A stretch of 64,000 bases of DNA from Parcubacteria group bacterium. Lineage in GTDB: Bacteria; Patescibacteriota; Minisyncoccia; 2-02-FULL-40-12; IGHO2-01-FULL-4-A. The notes under the pieces were generated by a model, which did not search any database, was not told the DNA's origin, and saw only the letters and a list, made by a program, of their open reading frames with translations. The position numbers were made by a program, and so were the translations under genes. Each line of letters opens with the position of its first letter. Position 1 is the first letter of the stretch. Positions 1,000-61,156 of the stretch are shown here, one piece after another. The stretch is taken from NCBI GenBank assembly GCA_043821485.1, contig JBDRCU010000057.1, positions 598 through 64,597 on the forward strand, written 5' to 3'.

Positions 1000-1279
1000 C
1001 GCGGGGTGGAGCAGTCCGGTAGCTCGTTGGGCTCATAAGTAATTGTGACCCATTGTAGTAATACAATGTGGAAAAACTCCCGAAATTGCTGGAAACCCTA
1101 ATCTGTTTAAAACAGACGGGCAATCAGCAGCCAAGTCCTGAGAGTAATCGAAGGAAAGGTTCAGAGACTATAATGGGAGGACCCTACTCTTTTGAGGGGT
1201 CGTGGGATAGTCCGAACCTCCGAGTAATCGGAGTAACATTAGAACCCAAAGGTCGTTGGTTCAAATCCAACCCCCGCAA
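1000..1279 (+). tRNA. initiator tRNA-fMet (anticodon CAU) interrupted by a group I intron in the anticodon loop
   Basis: 5' exon 1000..1036 carries acceptor CGCGGGG, D-arm, and anticodon stem UUGGG with loop CUCAU. 3' exon 1243..1279 carries AA-CCCAA, T-arm GUUGG-UUCAAAU-CCAAC, acceptor CCCCGCA and discriminator A. The C1xA72 mismatch and three G-C pairs closing the anticodon stem are bacterial initiator hallmarks. Intron boundaries are uniquely fixed by U at -1 and terminal G. Confidence 0.8.
1037..1242 (+). ncRNA. group I self-splicing intron (206 nt) in tRNA-fMet anticodon loop, no ORF
   Basis: Conserved group I core elements are readable. P-like element AAAUUGCUGGAAACC (1083..1097) and Q-like AAUCAGCAGCC (1122..1132) are present. 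R-like GGUUCAGAGACUAUAA (1158..1173) and S-like GGGAUAGUCCGAAC (1204..1217) are present. P7 pairs GACUA with UAGUC; the intron ends in G after exon-terminal U. Confidence 0.75.
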
Positions 1280-1294
1280 CAAAGCAAATCACCC
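1271..1294. repeat. left copy of 24-nt imperfect direct repeat (CCCCCGCAACAAA-gc-AAATCACCC), spanning the tRNA-fMet 3' end (attL-like)
   Basis: Matches 1828..1851 (CCCCCGCAACAAA-tt-AAATCACCC) at 22/24 positions. Confidence 0.7.
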
Positions 1295-1317
1295 TTATTT
1301 TATAGGGGTGATTTTTG
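1286..1317 (+). terminator. rho-independent terminator after tRNA-fMet
   Basis: Hairpin AAATCACCC-ttattttata-GGGGTGATTT followed by TTTG. A near-identical hairpin follows the tmRNA at 53140..53172. Confidence 0.6.
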
Positions 1318-1394
1318 TAAGGGTATTGATGGTTTGAACTTGTTTGTATCATAAATTGTATCGTGTTATTTTAATTATATTCAAGGAGGCGCAG

Positions 1395-1754: not shown

Positions 1755-1827
1755 ATACCTATTCTCTAACAAACTCATACCTCCAATAGCCTATATTCTG
1801 CATTAAACAAGTTCTAAACCTCTCAAT

Positions 1828-1851
1828 CCCCCGCAACAAATTAAATCACCC
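1828..1851. repeat. right copy of direct repeat (attR-like)
   Basis: Matches 1271..1294. It lies about 550 bp downstream of the tRNA, bounding a GC-rich insert. Confidence 0.7.
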
Positions 1852-14851: not shown

Positions 14852-14964
14852 AAATATGTGAAGTGAAGTTAATTATATCATAAAAATTCGTGAAATCAAT
14901 GCGTGTTTTTGGTATAAAAACGAAAACGCCGTGAGAACTGCGACGAATTCGTCGCCGTGCCTTC

Positions 14965-15327
14965 TCACGACGGTAGGTACCTTATCTGATCGGTCTGTTT
15001 GGGACTCCTGTAGAGCCCTTCGAGCAGTTCTGTTCCGGTGATGCCCGCCTCTTTGTAGAGTCGGCAGAACCTAATAGTATCCACTAGAACGGGTCGGTTT
15101 CGTCCCTCTTCTGCTGGCCAGAACCAATGCCAGCGCCTGCAAACCGAGCATTCCAGTGATATGGCTTCGGGCTCGCTACGGCATGGTTTCCATATCGTCG
15201 GAATCTTACACAGCCTCTCTCCGCACATGAGGCAGTACATCGCGACCTCCTTGAATGTTGCAAAGAGCCTAGCACTAGTATCTAAAATTGGAAAGACCCG
15301 TGGGGCCGGCGCGTCAGCGCCGACCAC
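14965..15327 (-). CDS. Cys-rich hypothetical protein (possible zinc-binding) in GC-rich island
   Basis: CLMCGERLC...CSVCRRWHW clusters. GC content is far above surrounding genes. It is co-oriented with the downstream PurM-like gene. Confidence 0.4.
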   Translation of the reverse strand: MVGADAPAPRVFPILDTSARLFATFKEVAMYCLMCGERLCKIPTIWKPCRSEPEAISLECSVCRRWHWFWPAEEGRNRPVLVDTIRFCRLYKEAGITGTELLEGLYRSPKQTDQIRYLPS

Positions 15328-15383
15328 ACGGGCCAGGGTGCTGGTTATGTTGGTATATGTACTGTTCCGGCGTATGCTCCTTC

Positions 15384-16598
15384 TTATTCGCCGGGAGTCT
15401 TCAGGCTCAGCGTTTCACGATCGCTGAATCTGGACTCGATAATGAGCTTTTGATCGGGGACGCCGGCGTGGACAGTTTTCCCCACAACCATAGCCTCGTG
15501 CCCGTCTTTCCATGCCTCCTCACAGATCCTTTGGACATCCGTTGGTTCGCAGATGACGAACATACCACAACCGCCATGGAAGGTGTTGTAGCAGTCGTAG
15601 TCGCTCAGAGGTGAGTCGCCGCACTGTAGTGAGAGGGACTGTGCTTTGAGCAGAACTTCCGGTGCTTCGGGCATCTGGTCCAGGTGTACGCCAATCCCTT
15701 CAGGCAACAGTTCTCCGAGCTTGCTCCATACACCCCCACCGGTGACGTGCGCGATGCCGTGGATGCGGGCCAGTGGTGGGCCGGGTTCGCCATCTTGAGT
15801 CCAGCCCAGGAGTCGTGTGATCGTCCTGGCATAGCTCCGTGAGGGAACAGTGAGCTTTTTCACGTATGCCATGGCGGTTGCATTGTTCGAGATCAAATCG
15901 ATTTCCGGTCCCCACGTGCCCAGGACGATATTGGTCAGGGCTGTACCACCGTTGCAGCGGTAACCGAACTCCCTGAAGCCCACGACTGCCATTCCCGAGT
16001 TGATACTGGAACCGTCGATTCGCAGGTCGGTCCTGGTAAGACCGATGCATGTTCCGCCCCACGTAAGCACGAGTTGACCATCGCTGTCGGTGTCGCAGAA
16101 GGCAGTGATGCTGTGCTTCATGACCGCGGTTTCGCCAGTGATGTTTGCAAGTCCGGCTTGCCGAAGGGCTGCGCCATGGCCGTTCCACAGGGCACGGCAT
16201 AGATGGATGTTTTTGGCGGTGACCCTTTTGACGTTCAGGTCATTCGCCATGATGGCCGGGAAGCCGCCGCCTGCCACAACGTCGTCGGCGTTCATGGTGA
16301 TGATTTCCCAGCCGAGATCGTTGAAGGCTTCCTCTTCGTTCAGAAGCGTGAAGAACTGGGGCTTGCCTCCGGCTCCATCGTTTTGGACCGTCTCGCGGAC
16401 ACGACGATCAATCATCAACTTGAGGATGTGCTCCCTCCAGAGGAATTCGGGCAAGCCACCGCGGAAATGTCCTGTCTGCTGTGGGTAAATCGTCACAGCT
16501 GGACAGTTTCCACTGCTTGCCAAGCAGACTTGATGTCCGAGTCTAGACATCTCATCGCCGGGATTGATTACTTCGGACCTGTAGCTCATTCTTTGCAC
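15384..16598 (-). CDS. PurM-like (AIR synthase-related) ATP-binding protein of unknown function, GC-rich (probably horizontally acquired)
   Basis: PurM superfamily motifs MNADDVVAGGGFPA and HVTGGGVW. Not obviously SelD (no GAGCGCK) or HypE (no C-terminal Cys). Many overlapping shadow ORFs in the ORF track reflect the high GC. Confidence 0.7.
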   Translation of the reverse strand: MQRMSYRSEVINPGDEMSRLGHQVCLASSGNCPAVTIYPQQTGHFRGGLPEFLWREHILKLMIDRRVRETVQNDGAGGKPQFFTLLNEEEAFNDLGWEIITMNADDVVAGGGFPAIMANDLNVKRVTAKNIHLCRALWNGHGAALRQAGLANITGETAVMKHSITAFCDTDSDGQLVLTWGGTCIGLTRTDLRIDGSSINSGMAVVGFREFGYRCNGGTALTNIVLGTWGPEIDLISNNATAMAYVKKLTVPSRSYARTITRLLGWTQDGEPGPPLARIHGIAHVTGGGVWSKLGELLPEGIGVHLDQMPEAPEVLLKAQSLSLQCGDSPLSDYDCYNTFHGGCGMFVICEPTDVQRICEEAWKDGHEAMVVGKTVHAGVPDQKLIIESRFSDRETLSLKTPGE

Positions 16599-16649
16599 CT
16601 CCGTATTTTTGGCTTATTGCCGAAGACCTTGCTTCAAGGGTAATGATTT

Positions 16650-23763: not shown

Positions 23764-24486
23764 TTAGTGTTGCGCCCACATGTCGTAGCAGGTCTTGCCG
23801 CCGGTTTCGCAGTCCAGCGACGCGACGTTATTGGTCTTGGCGGAATAGTGGTAGCAGGTGTAGTAGCACTGCCATATGCTTCCGTAGATACGATAAGGGC
23901 CGCAGGGTAGGTCGTTGAGCCTGCGGAATGTCACCTTGGCCTTTGCTTGGGCTGGCAGATATACGTACCCCAGGTAGTAGTACCTGGAGCACTCTACATT
24001 GAGGACCCAGAGGTCAACGTAGCTTCCGGCGTAGTATTCCTCTTTGCCGAATTTTTTAAACAGCTTGATCGTGATTTTCTTCCGGTTCATCCGGAAGTCT
24101 TCGATCCTGAACATCTCCCAGTTTGTCTCATCTACCGCGTTGGCGGTCTGGGCGGTGTCGCCGTTCAGGACGAGAGCCGAGGAGGCAGTGGACAGGCTGT
24201 CCATCTTCGCCTCGAATTCGTTCTTCGCCACGGTGGCCCCGGGCATCAGTCCGAAGACCTCATCAGGGCGATCCGTTTTTCCTTCGAATTCCTGTTCGTT
24301 CAGGAGTTCGATGTCGCGGAAGCTTCCCTGTTCGCCGTCAGTGAAGGGGGTGGGCGCGTGGTCGGCGGTCAGGTTGCTGCCGATTTCCCCGAGCGTGTCG
24401 GGGGTGACCGGATTCGAGCTGCAAGCTGCGAACGTCATCATCGCTACCACGATCAAGATCTGGAAACCGAAACCGTTCTGTCTCAT
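23764..24486 (-). CDS. lipoprotein of unknown function, GC-rich (foreign)
   Basis: Signal peptide with lipobox FAAC. Multiple C-terminal Cys (CGPYRIYGSIWQCYYTCYHY...C...C). GC content far above the host. Flanked by GC hairpins at 23690..23725 and 23740..23765. Confidence 0.55.
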   Translation of the reverse strand: MRQNGFGFQILIVVAMMTFAACSSNPVTPDTLGEIGSNLTADHAPTPFTDGEQGSFRDIELLNEQEFEGKTDRPDEVFGLMPGATVAKNEFEAKMDSLSTASSALVLNGDTAQTANAVDETNWEMFRIEDFRMNRKKITIKLFKKFGKEEYYAGSYVDLWVLNVECSRYYYLGYVYLPAQAKAKVTFRRLNDLPCGPYRIYGSIWQCYYTCYHYSAKTNNVASLDCETGGKTCYDMWAQH

Positions 24487-47824: not shown

Positions 47825-48772
47825 TTGTGCGACACAGCTATATATTGCTATACTATATATGTGAATATCAAAGATCTCAAAAACCAATTCCTTGAACATC
47901 TAGAAATTGAGAAAAATAGATCCCCCAAAACAGTAGAAAATTACGATCACTATTTATCTAGATTCTTTATTTTTGCAAAAATAGACAAACCCTCACAGCT
48001 CACTGAAGAGTTGATCCGCAAATTCAGACTGCATCTCAATAGAATGACCGATAACAAAGACAAATCACTTAAGAAGGTAACTCAAAATTATCACATTATT
48101 GCGCTTAGGGCTTTTTTGAAATATCTATCGAAGCGGGATATACAAACTGTTCCGGCAGAGAAAGTAGAGCTTGGCAAGCAAGAAGAGCGACAAGTTGAAT
48201 TCCTTGAAGAAGGCGAGTTAAAGAAGTTTTTGGATTCTCCAAAGATGAATACGCTTGCAGGACTTCGTGATAAATCAATTCTTGAGACTCTTTTTTCAAC
48301 CGGGCTTCGCGTATCAGAGTTATGTTCACTAGATCGAGACTCAATTGATCTTGATAGGGGAGAGTTCTCTGTAAAAGGCAAAGGCAGTAAGATACGGTTG
48401 GTCTTTTTATCTGATGATGCCAAGTCTACGATTATTCAATATCTAGATAAACGAGTTGATGCTGATGAGGCGCTTTTCATACGAGTTCCTAAGGATGAAA
48501 AATTTGAAAAATACGAAAACCTTCGTCTCACTCCACGCAGTATACAGAGAGTCATTAAAAAGTATGCAATTGAATCAGGCATTGTAGGCAAGAAGGTCTC
48601 GCCTCATACATTACGCCATAGCTATGCAACAGACCTTCTTCGCAATGGTGCTGACATCCGTTCAGTGCAGGCTATGCTTGGACATTCATCTGTAACAACA
48701 ACTCAAATTTACACTCACGTGACAGACAAGCAGTTACGAGAGGTGCATAAGAAGTTCCACGATAAAAAGTAG
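47825..48772 (+). CDS. xerC: tyrosine recombinase XerC/XerD family
   Basis: C-terminal catalytic region HTLRHSYATDLLRNGADIRSVQAMLGHSSVTTTQIYTHV. The true start may be the GTG giving MNIKDLK. Confidence 0.85.
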   Translation: MCDTAIYCYTIYVNIKDLKNQFLEHLEIEKNRSPKTVENYDHYLSRFFIFAKIDKPSQLTEELIRKFRLHLNRMTDNKDKSLKKVTQNYHIIALRAFLKYLSKRDIQTVPAEKVELGKQEERQVEFLEEGELKKFLDSPKMNTLAGLRDKSILETLFSTGLRVSELCSLDRDSIDLDRGEFSVKGKGSKIRLVFLSDDAKSTIIQYLDKRVDADEALFIRVPKDEKFEKYENLRLTPRSIQRVIKKYAIESGIVGKKVSPHTLRHSYATDLLRNGADIRSVQAMLGHSSVTTTQIYTHVTDKQLREVHKKFHDKK

Positions 48773-52753: not shown

Positions 52754-53133
52754 GGGCTTGAAAGGCTTCGATGGAGGTTCATTTACAGGATTGAGCACGT
52801 CGAGTTTACCGATGTCTCGTAAATAATGTCGGTGCAAGATAAGTGCAAACACATCTTATCAAATGCCATCTATGGCAGGAATGTCACAAATGGCAGTAGC
52901 ATAACTTTTTAGTATAGCTACCGTCTTACCTCGGATTCTCGCTAGGGGGATAAGGCGTCATTAGCGAGAAACTTTGCCTGCTATTACTATGACGGCAGAA
53001 CATCGCAATTCCCATAGTACATTGCCTGAGCTTTTGTTCATTCCTTATCAGGCGGTGTAAATCGGAATGAACTAAACGTGTAGTATCATCTTGTATCAAC
53101 TTTCAGACGGGGGTTCGATTCCCCCCGAGTCCA
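52754..53133 (+). ncRNA. ssrA: tmRNA (ssrA)
   Basis: 5' GGGCUUGAAAGGCUUCGAUGGAGG resembles the tmRNA 5' end. The acceptor stem GGGCUUG/CGAGUCC contains a G3:U pair. T-arm GGGGGUUCGAUUCCCCC, discriminator A. The candidate tag reading frame 52845..52904 encodes ANTSYQMPSMAGMSQMAVA then a UAA stop. Confidence 0.8.
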
Positions 53134-53137
53134 CAAA
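53124..53137. repeat. left copy of 14-nt direct repeat CCCGAGTCCACAAA (tmRNA 3' end, attL-like)
   Basis: Identical copy at 53919..53932. Confidence 0.7.
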
Positions 53138-53139
53138 CG

Positions 53140-53172
53140 AAATAACCCTTATTTTACGGGGGTTATTTTTGT
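53140..53172 (+). terminator. terminator hairpin after tmRNA (AAATAACCC-ttattttac-GGGGGTTATTTTT)
   Basis: Near-identical (28/32) to the hairpin after tRNA-fMet at 1286..1317. Confidence 0.6.
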
Positions 53173-53286
53173 TGACTCCCAGGGATATTTGAACCTTTTC
53201 AAACAAAAAAGCGTCACAGGTGTGATGCTCTTTTGATTCTGGGCGACCCCTGATTGCTCGTGTGAGCAGGGGTCGCCCATCTGTAC

Positions 53287-53670
53287 TTACTGGGCGGTAG
53301 CAGCCGCCCGGCTTTCGACCCACTCTCTACTCACCACATGGGCGAGCAAGTAGTTCACGGCCTCCTGTAACGCGGAGGCCCTCATGAACTCGTAGGTGGG
53401 GTCCTTTTGGACCCCGAGCTTCATCGCCGAGAGGCCGTAGCCCAGGGCATTGACGCCCTTTAACTGGCCTCTGCCGTTGCTGTCCAAGCACTTGTCAATG
53501 TGCTTGGTGGCATTGTCGACGAGTTTCAGGAACTCATCGACATCGACGTCGTACTTGGCCAGGACATCCATTGCCTTGGCCAGATCATCTATTGGGTTAC
53601 CATGGACCATGAGGACCATGGCAGAGAGGGAGCTGAGCTCCCGTTTTGTGGTGTGATGCACGTAGGCCAT
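53287..53670 (-). CDS. hypothetical protein (127 aa), GC-rich, inside tmRNA-associated insert
   Basis: ORF with GC content far above the host; no motifs. Confidence 0.45.
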   Translation of the reverse strand: MAYVHHTTKRELSSLSAMVLMVHGNPIDDLAKAMDVLAKYDVDVDEFLKLVDNATKHIDKCLDSNGRGQLKGVNALGYGLSAMKLGVQKDPTYEFMRASALQEAVNYLLAHVVSREWVESRAAATAQ

Positions 53671-53918
53671 TTTTGGCCTCCTTTTTTAAAGTACCCCACC
53701 CCTAACGAGGTTTCGGGGTTAATTTTTGCTTTTCGCTATAGACACAATGCCTATGCGAGTACAGCCCCCTTCCCGGGTCTTCTGTCAATTTAATGTATAT
53801 TATAACATATAATATATTCTTTTGTCAACCTCATATATAGTAGATTCAAACTTCAATTACACCACCCAATTCCCAAAAACCCCTCATCTCCCTCACCAAA
53901 AGGTTCATATTAAAACAT

Positions 53919-53932
53919 CCCGAGTCCACAAA
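53919..53932. repeat. right copy of 14-nt direct repeat CCCGAGTCCACAAA (attR-like), followed by a second terminator-like hairpin 53941..53967
   Basis: Exact match to the tmRNA 3' end. Followed by TAAAACACCC-ttttg-GGTGTTTTATA. Confidence 0.7.
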
Positions 53933-54004
53933 GAAAAAATATAAAACACCCTTTTGGGTGTTTTATATTGGAATAAATTGGATGCTTAATGATATAATTA
54001 ATCT

Positions 54005-60712: not shown

Positions 60713-61156
60713 TTAGTATTGTTTGACTACTCTATCTTTCCTTCGTTTAAACTCCTTTTCTTTGATCTTTTCGCGTTTATCATATTTCTTTTTGCCTCGG
60801 GCAATGCCAATTTCCAGCTTTACCAGACCACGTGTTCCATAGAGTTTAGTGGGTACAAGAGTTATGCCTTTTTCTTCGGTTTTGCCAATGAGGTGCTTGA
60901 GTTGAGTCTTGGTAACGAGGAGTTTGCGACTGCGTTGCTGATCATAATCCTTGGGAGTATTACCCGGTTGATAAGGGGAGACAGTGGCTCCAATGAGCCA
61001 GAGCTCTCCACTCATTATTTTTACGTAAGCTCCTTTGATAGATGCTTTCCCAGCTTTGATTGCTTTGGTCTCAAATCCTTTCAAAACCAAACCAGCCTCA
61101 ATGGTATCGAGGATTTCGTAATCATATGAAGCTTTTCGATTGGTAGCGTAGGACAT
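60713..61156 (-). CDS. smpB: SsrA-binding protein SmpB
   Basis: SmpB signature (YDYEILDTIEAGLVLKGFE...LLVTK) and basic C-terminal tail. Confidence 0.9.
   Translation of the reverse strand: MSYATNRKASYDYEILDTIEAGLVLKGFETKAIKAGKASIKGAYVKIMSGELWLIGATVSPYQPGNTPKDYDQQRSRKLLVTKTQLKHLIGKTEEKGITLVPTKLYGTRGLVKLEIGIARGKKKYDKREKIKEKEFKRRKDRVVKQY

Follow-up and report, generated by a model that had tools for sequence, protein, structure and literature searches.

Repeat-bounded, integrase-less mini-inserts behind the tmRNA and tRNA-fMet genes of a Parcubacteria genome

A short, partly GC-rich stretch of DNA lies directly behind the transfer-messenger RNA (tmRNA) gene ssrA on contig JBDRCU010000057.1, enclosed between two exact copies of the end of that gene. 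How did it come to lie there, and what kind of element is it? The question matters in this host, since candidate-phyla-radiation bacteria have tiny genomes and few recognisable mobile elements, and their uptake of foreign genes is poorly understood. The window analyzed here is 64 kb of a metagenome-assembled Parcubacteria genome, and it contains a second insert of the same plan behind the tRNA-fMet gene. We propose, at about an even chance, that both inserts are integrase-less mini-cassettes flanked by attachment-site (att) repeats and resembling cis-mobilizable elements (CIMEs), that is, foreign DNA inserted site-specifically, or the remnants of such DNA. The integration footprint itself is known; what is new is an element integrated at a tRNA or tmRNA gene that is integrase-less and miniature and has a palindromic junction.

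The tmRNA gene (52754-53136, plus strand) is called by ARAGORN (52754-53134/6) and matched by Rfam RF00023 at 128 bits over model positions 1-374, and is therefore complete. It encodes the tag peptide ANTSYQMPSMAGMSQMAVA and ends in CAA, not CCA. The G3:U70 pair, a requirement of alanyl-tRNA synthetase, is kept in the acceptor stem when the pairing is read from the sequence. The last two T-stem nucleotides, the acceptor 3′ strand, the discriminator and CAAA make up the 14-nt left direct repeat CCCGAGTCCACAAA (53124-53137, plus strand), an attL-like core, and an exact copy on the same strand at 53919-53932, the attR-like core, represents a displaced tmRNA 3′ end. The sequence-only reading that preceded this analysis had reported this repeat 795 bp downstream, and the two copies, 795 nt apart from start to start, are indeed the only ones in the window, even when two mismatches are allowed. 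By arithmetic, ~7e-5 such repeats, at least 14 nt long and taken from the terminal ~26 nt of the gene, would be expected by chance in the 1.5 kb that follow. After the displaced copy stands hairpin t0 (AATATAAAACACCC TTTT GGGTGTTTTATATT; 53938-53969, assigned to no strand), which has no inverted copy of the gene end behind it and probably served as the tmRNA terminator before insertion; downstream of t0 lies the promoter region of a subtilase gene.

What is enclosed between the repeats is a complete one-gene cassette, and all 781 bp of it (53138-53918) can be assigned to parts. The only open reading frame (ORF) of at least 100 aa is the cargo gene for a 127-aa orphan protein (53287-53670, minus strand). 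A Shine-Dalgarno-like AAGGAGG stands 6 nt before its ATG (53677-53683, minus strand), and a promoter scan found a sigma-70-type promoter with a full consensus match (TTGACA, 18-nt spacer, TG, TATAAT; 12/12; 53799-53828, minus strand), which is directed at the cargo gene when read from 53828 to 53799 and implies a 5′ leader of ~120 nt. Straight after the stop codon follows a GC-rich hairpin (53241-53278, minus strand) that would act as the cargo terminator. The composition of the gene is clearly foreign: its GC content is 0.57 and its GC content at third codon positions (GC3) is 0.77, against a GC3 of 0.32 ± 0.03 (range 0.26-0.37) in 18 host genes. The earlier description of GC-rich enclosed DNA with one 127-aa ORF holds for the ORF and its terminator (~53230-53700), where GC peaks at 56% against a window mean of 40%, and fails for the right-hand 220 bp, which are AT-rich and host-like; ~90 AT-rich bases separate the cargo promoter from the right repeat.

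The 127-aa protein and the 525-aa protein encoded upstream are identical to the NCBI proteins ABH833_04200 and ABH833_04190, both filed under ‘Parcubacteria group bacterium’. The cargo protein has no match in Pfam, PHROGs, NCBIfam or PADLOC and finds only itself among 5.8e9 clustered proteins (word search) and among 1.84e9 representative proteins (exhaustive HMMER); searches of viral contigs (tblastn), phage records and plasmid records (blastn) returned nothing. The 525-aa protein that flanks the insert is an orphan as well. A single-sequence AlphaFold model of the cargo protein is predicted to be all-helical, at a low-confidence mean predicted local distance difference test score of 43, which is too poor for a fold search.

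Is the tmRNA insert a singular case? It has a sibling at the tRNA-fMet gene (C1xA72; 1003-1280, plus strand), which carries a group I intron in the anticodon loop (Rfam RF00028 at 1025-1234, 75.8 bits; exons taken from the sequence) and which ARAGORN missed because the intron interrupts the gene. Group I introns in Patescibacteria tRNA genes are the subject of a preprint (10.1101/2025.07.03.662931), and the relative L007 has a tRNA-fMet with an intron arranged alike (1306-1520). The end of the gene supplies the exact 13-nt direct repeat CCCCCGCAACAAA (1271-1283, plus strand), which recurs in the window only at 1828-1840, 557 nt away. The 544-bp insert between them (1284-1827) follows the plan of the tmRNA insert, with a different cargo and a different, target-matched repeat. 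Its cargo consists of two predicted, overlapping small ORFs of 41 aa (hydrophobic) and 48 aa (charged) on the plus strand (1395-1663), followed by a hairpin, and their GC3 of 0.49-0.52 is likewise above that of the 18 host genes (0.32 ± 0.03). No homologue of the 48-aa ORF was found in the protein collection, from which the ORF itself is absent. Between tRNA-Met and the intron-bearing tRNA-fMet, a minus-strand gene (110-874) encodes a 254-aa protein with an N-terminal helix-turn-helix and weak family matches only (HTH_23 and a PHROG DNA-binding family); L007 has a counterpart at the same place (~505-1185, read by eye from the DNA). This protein could be an endonuclease or maturase tied to the fMet intron.

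The existence of two such loci bears on whether the repeats arose by chance or through misassembly. The source is a metagenome-assembled genome (MAG), in which artefacts of this kind may occur. However, two independent loci share one layout, each with a chance expectation of ~1e-4, and the pattern is seen across many independent assemblies. Moreover, assembler k-mers exceed 13-14 nt in length, and repeats this short should for this reason not cause chimeric joins. An artefact or coincidence is therefore hardly credible.

Right behind each gene end stands a hairpin, t1, that links the two loci. At the tmRNA it is terminator-like, with the stem AAATAACCC/GGGTTATTT followed by a T-run (53140-53171, plus strand; pattern search and fold), and its homologue lies at 1286-1317 (plus strand; pattern search, alignment and fold). 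The two sequences, AAATAACCCTTATTTTACGGGGGTTATTTTTG and AAATCACCCTTATTTTATAGGGGTGATTTTTG, are identical at 28 of 32 positions; of the four mismatched positions, two make up a compensatory stem pair. This agrees with the ~88% identity noted before, and with the claim that two tRNA/tmRNA 3′ ends share a hairpin and are each followed by a repeat-bounded insert, here the CCCGAGTCCACAAA and CCCCCGCAACAAA pairs. What the sequence-only reading stated as fact thus holds throughout, with the extent of the GC-rich part as the one point to correct. The terminator scan skipped t1 at 53140, apparently because its loop exceeds the 8-nt limit of the scan. One obvious worry is that t1 is a generic terminator. 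Within the window this is ruled out: a joint pattern of the two hairpins with up to three mismatches has two matches only, the module follows two loci only with a looser relative at 53944, and the other three tRNAs (Met, Ser and Arg) lack the hairpin as well as any repeat further downstream. The refuting case named by the sequence-only reading, a generic terminator, thus fails inside the window. Hairpins with an A-rich/ACCC...GGGT/T-rich build occur at three window sites, the two t1 hairpins and the t0 hairpin behind the tmRNA insert. The module has no match in a 596-Gb genome collection or in viral contigs; five metagenome matches lie beside genes read as response regulators, with no tRNA nearby, and were set aside as unrelated.

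After the right fMet repeat, at 1841-1980, stands a decayed hairpin of the t1 type (AAATCACCCAAATAGATAGGGAGTATTT), a decayed fourth of its kind, and beyond it a 75-nt GC-rich block with two hairpins; this stretch may be the leftovers of an older second tandem unit.

The left ends of the two inserts are kin over a 61-nt junction that begins in the T-arm and takes in the whole hairpin, with 75% identity over its full length and 88% within the hairpin part. Aligning both inserts, as had been suggested, brought out this junction and no other common sequence. What the inserts share beyond it is a structure that the earlier note had overlooked. Behind t1 at the tmRNA lies the left inverted repeat (IRL, or A′) TTTGTTGACTCCCAGGGATATTTGAACC (53172-53199, plus strand), a degenerate inverted copy of a T-loop and acceptor 3′ strand. 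Its core ATTTGAACCTTTT (53187-53199) pairs with the T-loop-like right inverted repeat (IRR) AAAAGGTTCATAT (53898-53910, plus strand) at an alignment score of 10.5, a value reached by ~0.15% of shuffles, and the pairing is seen in folds as well. The fMet insert has the left inverted repeat GGGTATTGATGGTTTGAACTTGTTT (1321-1345, plus strand; score 14, 0/2000 shuffles as good), which pairs with a right inverted repeat at 1805-1831 that runs into the right direct repeat at 1828-1840 (together 1805-1840, plus strand; repeat search, alignment and fold). In both inserts, then, the bases behind the hairpin are complementary to those ahead of the right repeat. With the insert ends connected, as in an excised circle, IRR, direct repeat, hairpin and IRL form one imperfect hairpin of ~97 nt, with the 13-14-nt identity block in its 5′ arm. 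The tmRNA junction, folded with DNA parameters, has a ΔG of −22.4 (z −4.8) and the fMet junction one of −27.2 (z −7.5), and swapping the right end for unrelated downstream DNA lowers the z-scores to −1.4 and −4.5, respectively. This loss indicates that both ends of each insert belong to one palindromic module. The terminal inverted repeats and the ~97-nt junction hairpin are new here. The palindromes fold equally on both strands with few G-T pairs, which favors a feature at the level of DNA; a purely RNA-based role is disfavored by the same lack of strand asymmetry and scarcity of G-U pairs. A transposon or miniature inverted-repeat transposable element was rejected because the 32-nt hairpin separates the left repeat from the inverted repeat, the 13-14-nt ‘duplication’ consists of the ends of two different genes, and the window holds no more copies.

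Does this layout recur elsewhere? An SmpB-anchored scan gave 56 loci, with Yanofskybacteria-like MAGs as best matches (SmpB identity 61-68%); the collections searched hold no close relative of the window genome. Most Parcubacteria relatives have ssrA immediately after smpB, unlike the window, and the data therefore offer no orthologous empty site. We scored 48 tRNA/tmRNA genes, comprising the Parcubacteria loci and the window, for direct copies of the 3′ end (score of at least 11 within 1.5 kb downstream) and for inverted copies (within 130 nt downstream). A displaced direct copy was found at 15 of the 48 genes (upstream controls, 0) and an inverted copy just behind the terminator at 10 (controls, 0), and genes with one kind of copy tend to have the other (odds ratio 4.9, p = 0.03). 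The order that recurs leads from the gene end through the terminator hairpin and the inverted gene end to the interior and a second gene end; direct repeats begin in or near the T-loop, and interiors are mostly 80-110 nt of GC-rich hairpins. L008 has one additional 170-nt unit with exact 19-nt repeat boundaries that is missing in its relative L009. The comparison with related tmRNA loci that had been called for thus bears in part on the proposed recurring family of small integrative elements: comparable mini-inserts at relatives’ genes and the L008/L009 difference speak for such a family, and the limited 61-nt resemblance of the two window inserts speaks against it. Between the window inserts and the relatives’ units blastn finds no homology, and their likeness is architectural only. 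Rfam assigns no family to the insert or the units, returning only long-hairpin noise and a sub-threshold tmRNA_permuted match.

Some interiors in relatives are closely similar to one another. A palindromic core of 69-71 nt (GGTCGCGAACACTTTGTATTTTGTGAGTA..CGAAACAAAATACTTAGTGATTCGTGACC) is 94-97% identical among L019 (2015-2083), L020 (11012-11080) and L021 (11248-11318), and the L015 core (~2212-2287) is 88-92% identical to these copies. The smpB-ssrA regions of the four genomes are only 73-84% identical, and a core identity so far above this suggests horizontal spread or strong constraint. Units of 100-200 nt, often in tandem, stand behind tRNA/tmRNA genes in L007 (1555-1945 and 17450-17630), L008 (11145-11680), L009 (10789-11000), L010 (4038-4240), L014, L021 (tRNA-Ser and tmRNA), L015, L019, L020 and L055, and homologous interiors occur at two genes, fMet and Glu, of the single genome L007. 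The same succession of end, hairpin, inverted end, interior and end is found behind the tmRNA in the Clostridia MAGs L049 and L051 (10780-10980), whose interiors are 93% identical over 118 nt and whose hairpins between gene and interior are wholly different.

Could such units arise with no recombinase at all, through replication or repair errors at a terminator palindrome? The nascent strand would fold at the hairpin, copy the gene end in inverted form and switch template via the self-complementary T-loop sequence; it would then gain unrelated DNA and return to the gene end, leaving the direct repeat. The relatives supply much that fits: the inverted copy always matches the adjacent gene (fMet, Glu, Ser, Ile or tmRNA) and adjoins the terminator hairpin, the repeat boundaries fall in or near the T-loop, the palindromes are strand-symmetric, and no recombinase lies nearby. 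However, such errors explain neither a strongly foreign, complete expression cassette nor the 88% identity of two hairpins at unlinked loci. The window inverted repeat also fits the right end of its insert better than it fits the gene, and relatives’ interiors at 94-97% identity beside smpB/tmRNA regions at 73-84% look like horizontal spread. We regard this origin as unlikely.

The relatives also bring an endonuclease into view. GIY-YIG genes cluster directly upstream or downstream of tmRNA/tRNA genes in Parcubacteria, and three tmRNA-linked interiors hold a small gene of this kind inside a repeat-bounded unit, intact in L016 (11071-11337; Pfam GIY-YIG match 2.4e-17) and decayed in L017 (11117-11332) and L027 (10688-10949). 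Further GIY-YIG genes adjoin tmRNA or tRNA genes in L008 (10342-10755), L024 (10453-10737), L030 (10492-10755) and L036 (6369-6680), some of the genes in this group as a whole being decayed. Endonuclease genes at the 3′ ends of fungal mitochondrial genes offer a model, in which a homing-type nuclease would cut a naive gene end and repair would copy in a cassette with a replacement end that pushes the old end aside; the window copies would be nuclease-less derivatives. Neither window insert has a nuclease gene, however, and jackhmmer, started from the L016 protein, detected no GIY-YIG ORF anywhere in the window. Homing neither needs nor explains inverted repeats, and GIY-YIG genes also lie upstream of tmRNA, outside repeat-bounded units. 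Such 3′-end replacement is very unlikely for the window, and both it and the replication-error origin fit the window inserts less well than they fit the relatives’ units.

As a control, we examined 110 viral-contig sites with the common tmRNA 3′ end, which represent classical phage or prophage attachment sites. None of the 110 has the inverted copy. The window tmRNA end has no match as a phage attP, and the one phage match to the window fMet end is a phage-encoded tRNA rather than an att site. That tRNA, on viral contig L182 (5206-5283), has the anticodon CUA, appears by eye to be a putative amber suppressor, shares 20 identical nt at its 3′ end with the window tRNA-fMet and lies just upstream of a large ORF, a candidate terminase. 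In the viral contigs L075, L119 and L177 a tmRNA 5′ end (GGGGATGACCAGGTTTCGACAGGG) begins no more than ~80 nt behind a tmRNA 3′ end, an arrangement that suggests permuted or tandem tmRNA pieces.

Which recombinase could have acted at the window loci? The sole tyrosine recombinase gene in the window (47825-48772; Pfam Phage_integrase) lies 4.4 kb upstream of the tmRNA insert. It scores 232.8 bits with the NCBIfam model XerA_Arch (cut-off 220) and just below the cut-offs for XerC and XerD, and homologues lie near smpB/ssrA in L009 (1e-155), L055 and L027. These homologues, together with the ordinary Xer score, identify it as a conserved host gene and not an element-borne integrase, and its involvement in mobilization is pure conjecture. 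Neither the window nor the relatives’ loci examined yielded a further tyrosine recombinase. An integron cassette, for which an integron integrase with adjacent attI and an attC with R″ and R′ core sites (GTTRRRY) would be expected, was rejected: matches to the integron-integrase models stay far under the cut-offs (128.8 vs 265; 80.4 vs 435), an attI is missing, the cargo brings a promoter of its own, and the hairpin stands at the gene-proximal junction.

The palindromic junction and the host Xer together raise the idea of a mini-element with a hairpin att that would integrate in single-stranded form, as CTXphi or integron cassettes do. In the free circle, repeat, hairpin and inverted repeats would fold into the ~97-nt hairpin, whose stem would mimic the duplex 3′ end of the target; a host tyrosine recombinase, with Xer as the sole window candidate, would carry out a single-strand exchange with the chromosomal gene, and the insertion would become permanent on replication. 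Such a scheme predicts the observed order of gene end, hairpin, inverted copy, cargo and gene end. It is consistent with the long imperfect hairpin formed by the joined ends at both loci, with the strand-symmetric palindromes and their few G-T pairs, and with the recurrence of the order in relatives (inverted copy at 10/48 genes, associated with the direct copy) against 0/110 phage sites. It would also suit the lack of an element recombinase beside a conserved Xer near ssrA in several relatives, and the size and one-gene content recall integron cassettes. On the other side, the support is purely structural, the insertion target differs from dif and a dif-like sequence was not identified, and nothing in its score sets the window recombinase apart from ordinary Xer proteins. 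In the tmRNA case, moreover, the strand facing the repeat pairs with it imperfectly and weakly, and the palindromes may have a passive origin. We put the chance of this route as small. A broader proposal is that Parcubacteria and some Clostridia harbor an undescribed class of recombinase-less 0.1-0.8-kb elements that insert in tRNA and tmRNA genes between T-loop and 3′ end, through a long palindromic att mimicking the duplex end of the target. They would perhaps be integrated as folded single strands by a single host Xer and could deliver single foreign genes, as a tRNA-targeted counterpart of integron cassettes or CTXphi-type integration, and the window inserts would be cargo-bearing members. 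We consider this doubtful.

A more conventional alternative starts from the missing integrase. The inserts could be relics of multi-kb, integrase-bearing islands or prophages at the tmRNA and fMet genes whose interior and integrase were deleted and which are now immobile. A regenerated gene with a displaced fragment is the classical island layout (PMC4383910). An internal deletion would spare both terminal inverted repeats and would leave no integrase, as is observed. Small genomes of this kind are deletion-prone in general. Weighing against such a history, the 781 bp consist of one intact expression cassette plus end modules with no pseudogene debris at the ORF level, the tiny size class (~100-800 nt) recurs at 15/48 genes in relatives, no large integrase-bearing counterpart was seen at the loci examined, and the inverted copy is missing from classical phage att sites. 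An island relic is rather unlikely, though we take it seriously.

How, then, would the favored explanation of site-specifically inserted, CIME-like mini-cassettes account for the locus? Its basis is that the repeat footprint, the foreign composition and the ends that form one module mark the DNA between the repeats as an inserted element. Islands in tRNA and tmRNA genes regenerate the gene and leave a displaced 3′ fragment (PMC4383910), and integrase-less, att-flanked CIMEs are a recognized class (PMC5704250, PMC7563491). On this view, positions 53138-53918 would be a self-contained block of foreign DNA, brought into the chromosome by site-specific recombination with the crossover within the 14-bp identity block at the extreme tmRNA 3′ end. 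The incoming DNA would have brought its own copy of the gene end, and the old end and t0 would have moved 795 bp downstream; an element-borne gene end would explain why the tmRNA is intact, with G3:U70 kept. The cassette would then comprise, in order, t1 as terminator for the tmRNA, an inverted repeat, the opposite-strand cargo gene with its promoter, strong ribosome-binding site and post-stop hairpin, and the second inverted repeat. Under this scheme the empty site at the tmRNA is predicted to read ...GGTTCGATTCCCCCCGAGTCCACAAAGAAAAAATATAAAACACCC... and the circular junction of the insert ...AAAAGGTTCATATTAAAACATCCCGAGTCCACAAACGAAATAACCCTTATTTTAC....

A cassette that has no recombinase would be non-autonomous, a CIME-type element, and one that is also very small and holds a complete one-gene cassette is best filed as a CIME-like mini-element or the relic of a larger one. 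Its small size would be either original or the outcome of reduction from a larger island. The lack of debris, the recurring size class in relatives and the absence of large counterparts favor the former, and the absence of evidence for movement favors caution. The data show the anatomy, the foreign composition, the lack of a recombinase, the kinship of the left ends and the recurrence of the layout in relatives; the recombination mechanism, which copy of the repeat came with the element, and any present-day mobility we infer from these features.

Several observations weigh against inserted mini-cassettes. The identity blocks are short, at 13-14 nt. No cognate autonomous element with matching ends was found in genome or viral contigs, phages or plasmids, and protein, viral, phage and plasmid searches at the assembly level gave no second copy, empty site or circular junction of either cassette. 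Scored against the gene’s own 3′ end, the inverted copies in the window are weak, at 8.5 and 7.0 against an upstream-control maximum of 8. Hairpin t0 (53938-53969) is itself a looser member of the t1 type, so that the ‘element’ hairpin may in part have come from the locus itself. Finally, since classical phage sites show no inverted copy or palindrome (0/110), the chemistry may differ from the double-strand scheme of tyrosine integrases.

If the inserts are mobile, they would represent a compact gene-delivery system and would point to a new type of substrate for tyrosine recombinases. If they are relics only, tRNA and tmRNA ends would be the main places where foreign DNA enters this lineage, and the inserts would illustrate how far islands can be pared down. 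Standard island finders seek an integrase gene and would miss such units. Of greater interest than the feature in the window is the wider Parcubacteria pattern, seen at about one-third of the tRNA/tmRNA genes scored.

Elsewhere in the window, smpB (60713-61156) and ssrA are convergent and 7.5 kb apart, with two very large protease-like genes between them. A second block of foreign composition, 55-59% GC (14900-16620), lies between the signal peptidase and peptidyl-tRNA hydrolase genes and encodes a 404-aa AIR-synthase-related protein and a 120-aa ORF, with no adjacent tRNA; a link of this block to the inserts is ruled out, as it has neither att-like repeats nor the hairpin module. A stretch of ~60% GC (24100-24400) forms part of a 240-aa minus-strand ORF (23764-24486) for which Pfam gives no match.

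How do the inserts compare with known systems? Their closest likeness is to the islands and prophages that tyrosine integrases place in tRNA/tmRNA genes, as cataloged by Islander and TIGER (PMC4383910, PMC12424338), which also target the 3′ end, regenerate the gene, leave the displaced fragment as a direct repeat at the far end and carry foreign cargo. In Islander terms, a complete tmRNA with its G3:U70 acceptor stem stands at one end and the displaced 3′ fragment at the other (14 nt at the tmRNA, 13 nt at tRNA-fMet), whereas the integrase gene expected inside an island is absent, the one ORF of at least 100 aa in the insert having no family match. The inserts further differ in size (0.5-0.8 kb against several to tens of kb), in an identity block of only 13-14 nt, and in the terminal inverted repeats and ~97-nt palindrome, which are not seen at the 110 phage sites.

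Streptococcal CIMEs (PMC5704250, PMC7563491) share with the inserts the att-type repeats, the lack of an own recombinase, small cargo, tandem related units at one site and a presumed reliance on the recombinase of another element. The defining combination of attL/attR-type repeats with no recombination or transfer modules is present in the window, although no cognate autonomous element is known here and the host is a member of the Parcubacteria. CIMEs are far larger than the window elements, and to our knowledge a palindromic junction is not one of their features.

In integrative mobile elements exploiting Xer (IMEX) of the CTXphi type, host XerCD integrates a folded single-stranded attP hairpin, and integron cassettes use a folded attC. 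The window inserts resemble both in having no own recombinase, a site that can be drawn as a long imperfect hairpin and a cassette-like size with one gene, and their order of site, spacer, inverted site, cargo and site would, by analogy, be the outcome of single-strand integration. As in IMEX, a host Xer is present and the element has no recombinase. However, the inserts sit at the tmRNA and tRNA-fMet 3′ ends instead of dif, attI or any identified dif-like sequence, there is no integron integrase, and the cargo has its own promoter; the likeness is architectural only. A last parallel is NBU1 of Bacteroides, an element of ~10 kb with its own integrase and mobilization functions and a 14-bp common core at a tRNA-Leu 3′ end. 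NBU1 shares with the window inserts this very short block at the extreme tRNA 3′ end and differs from them in being larger and in encoding an integrase.

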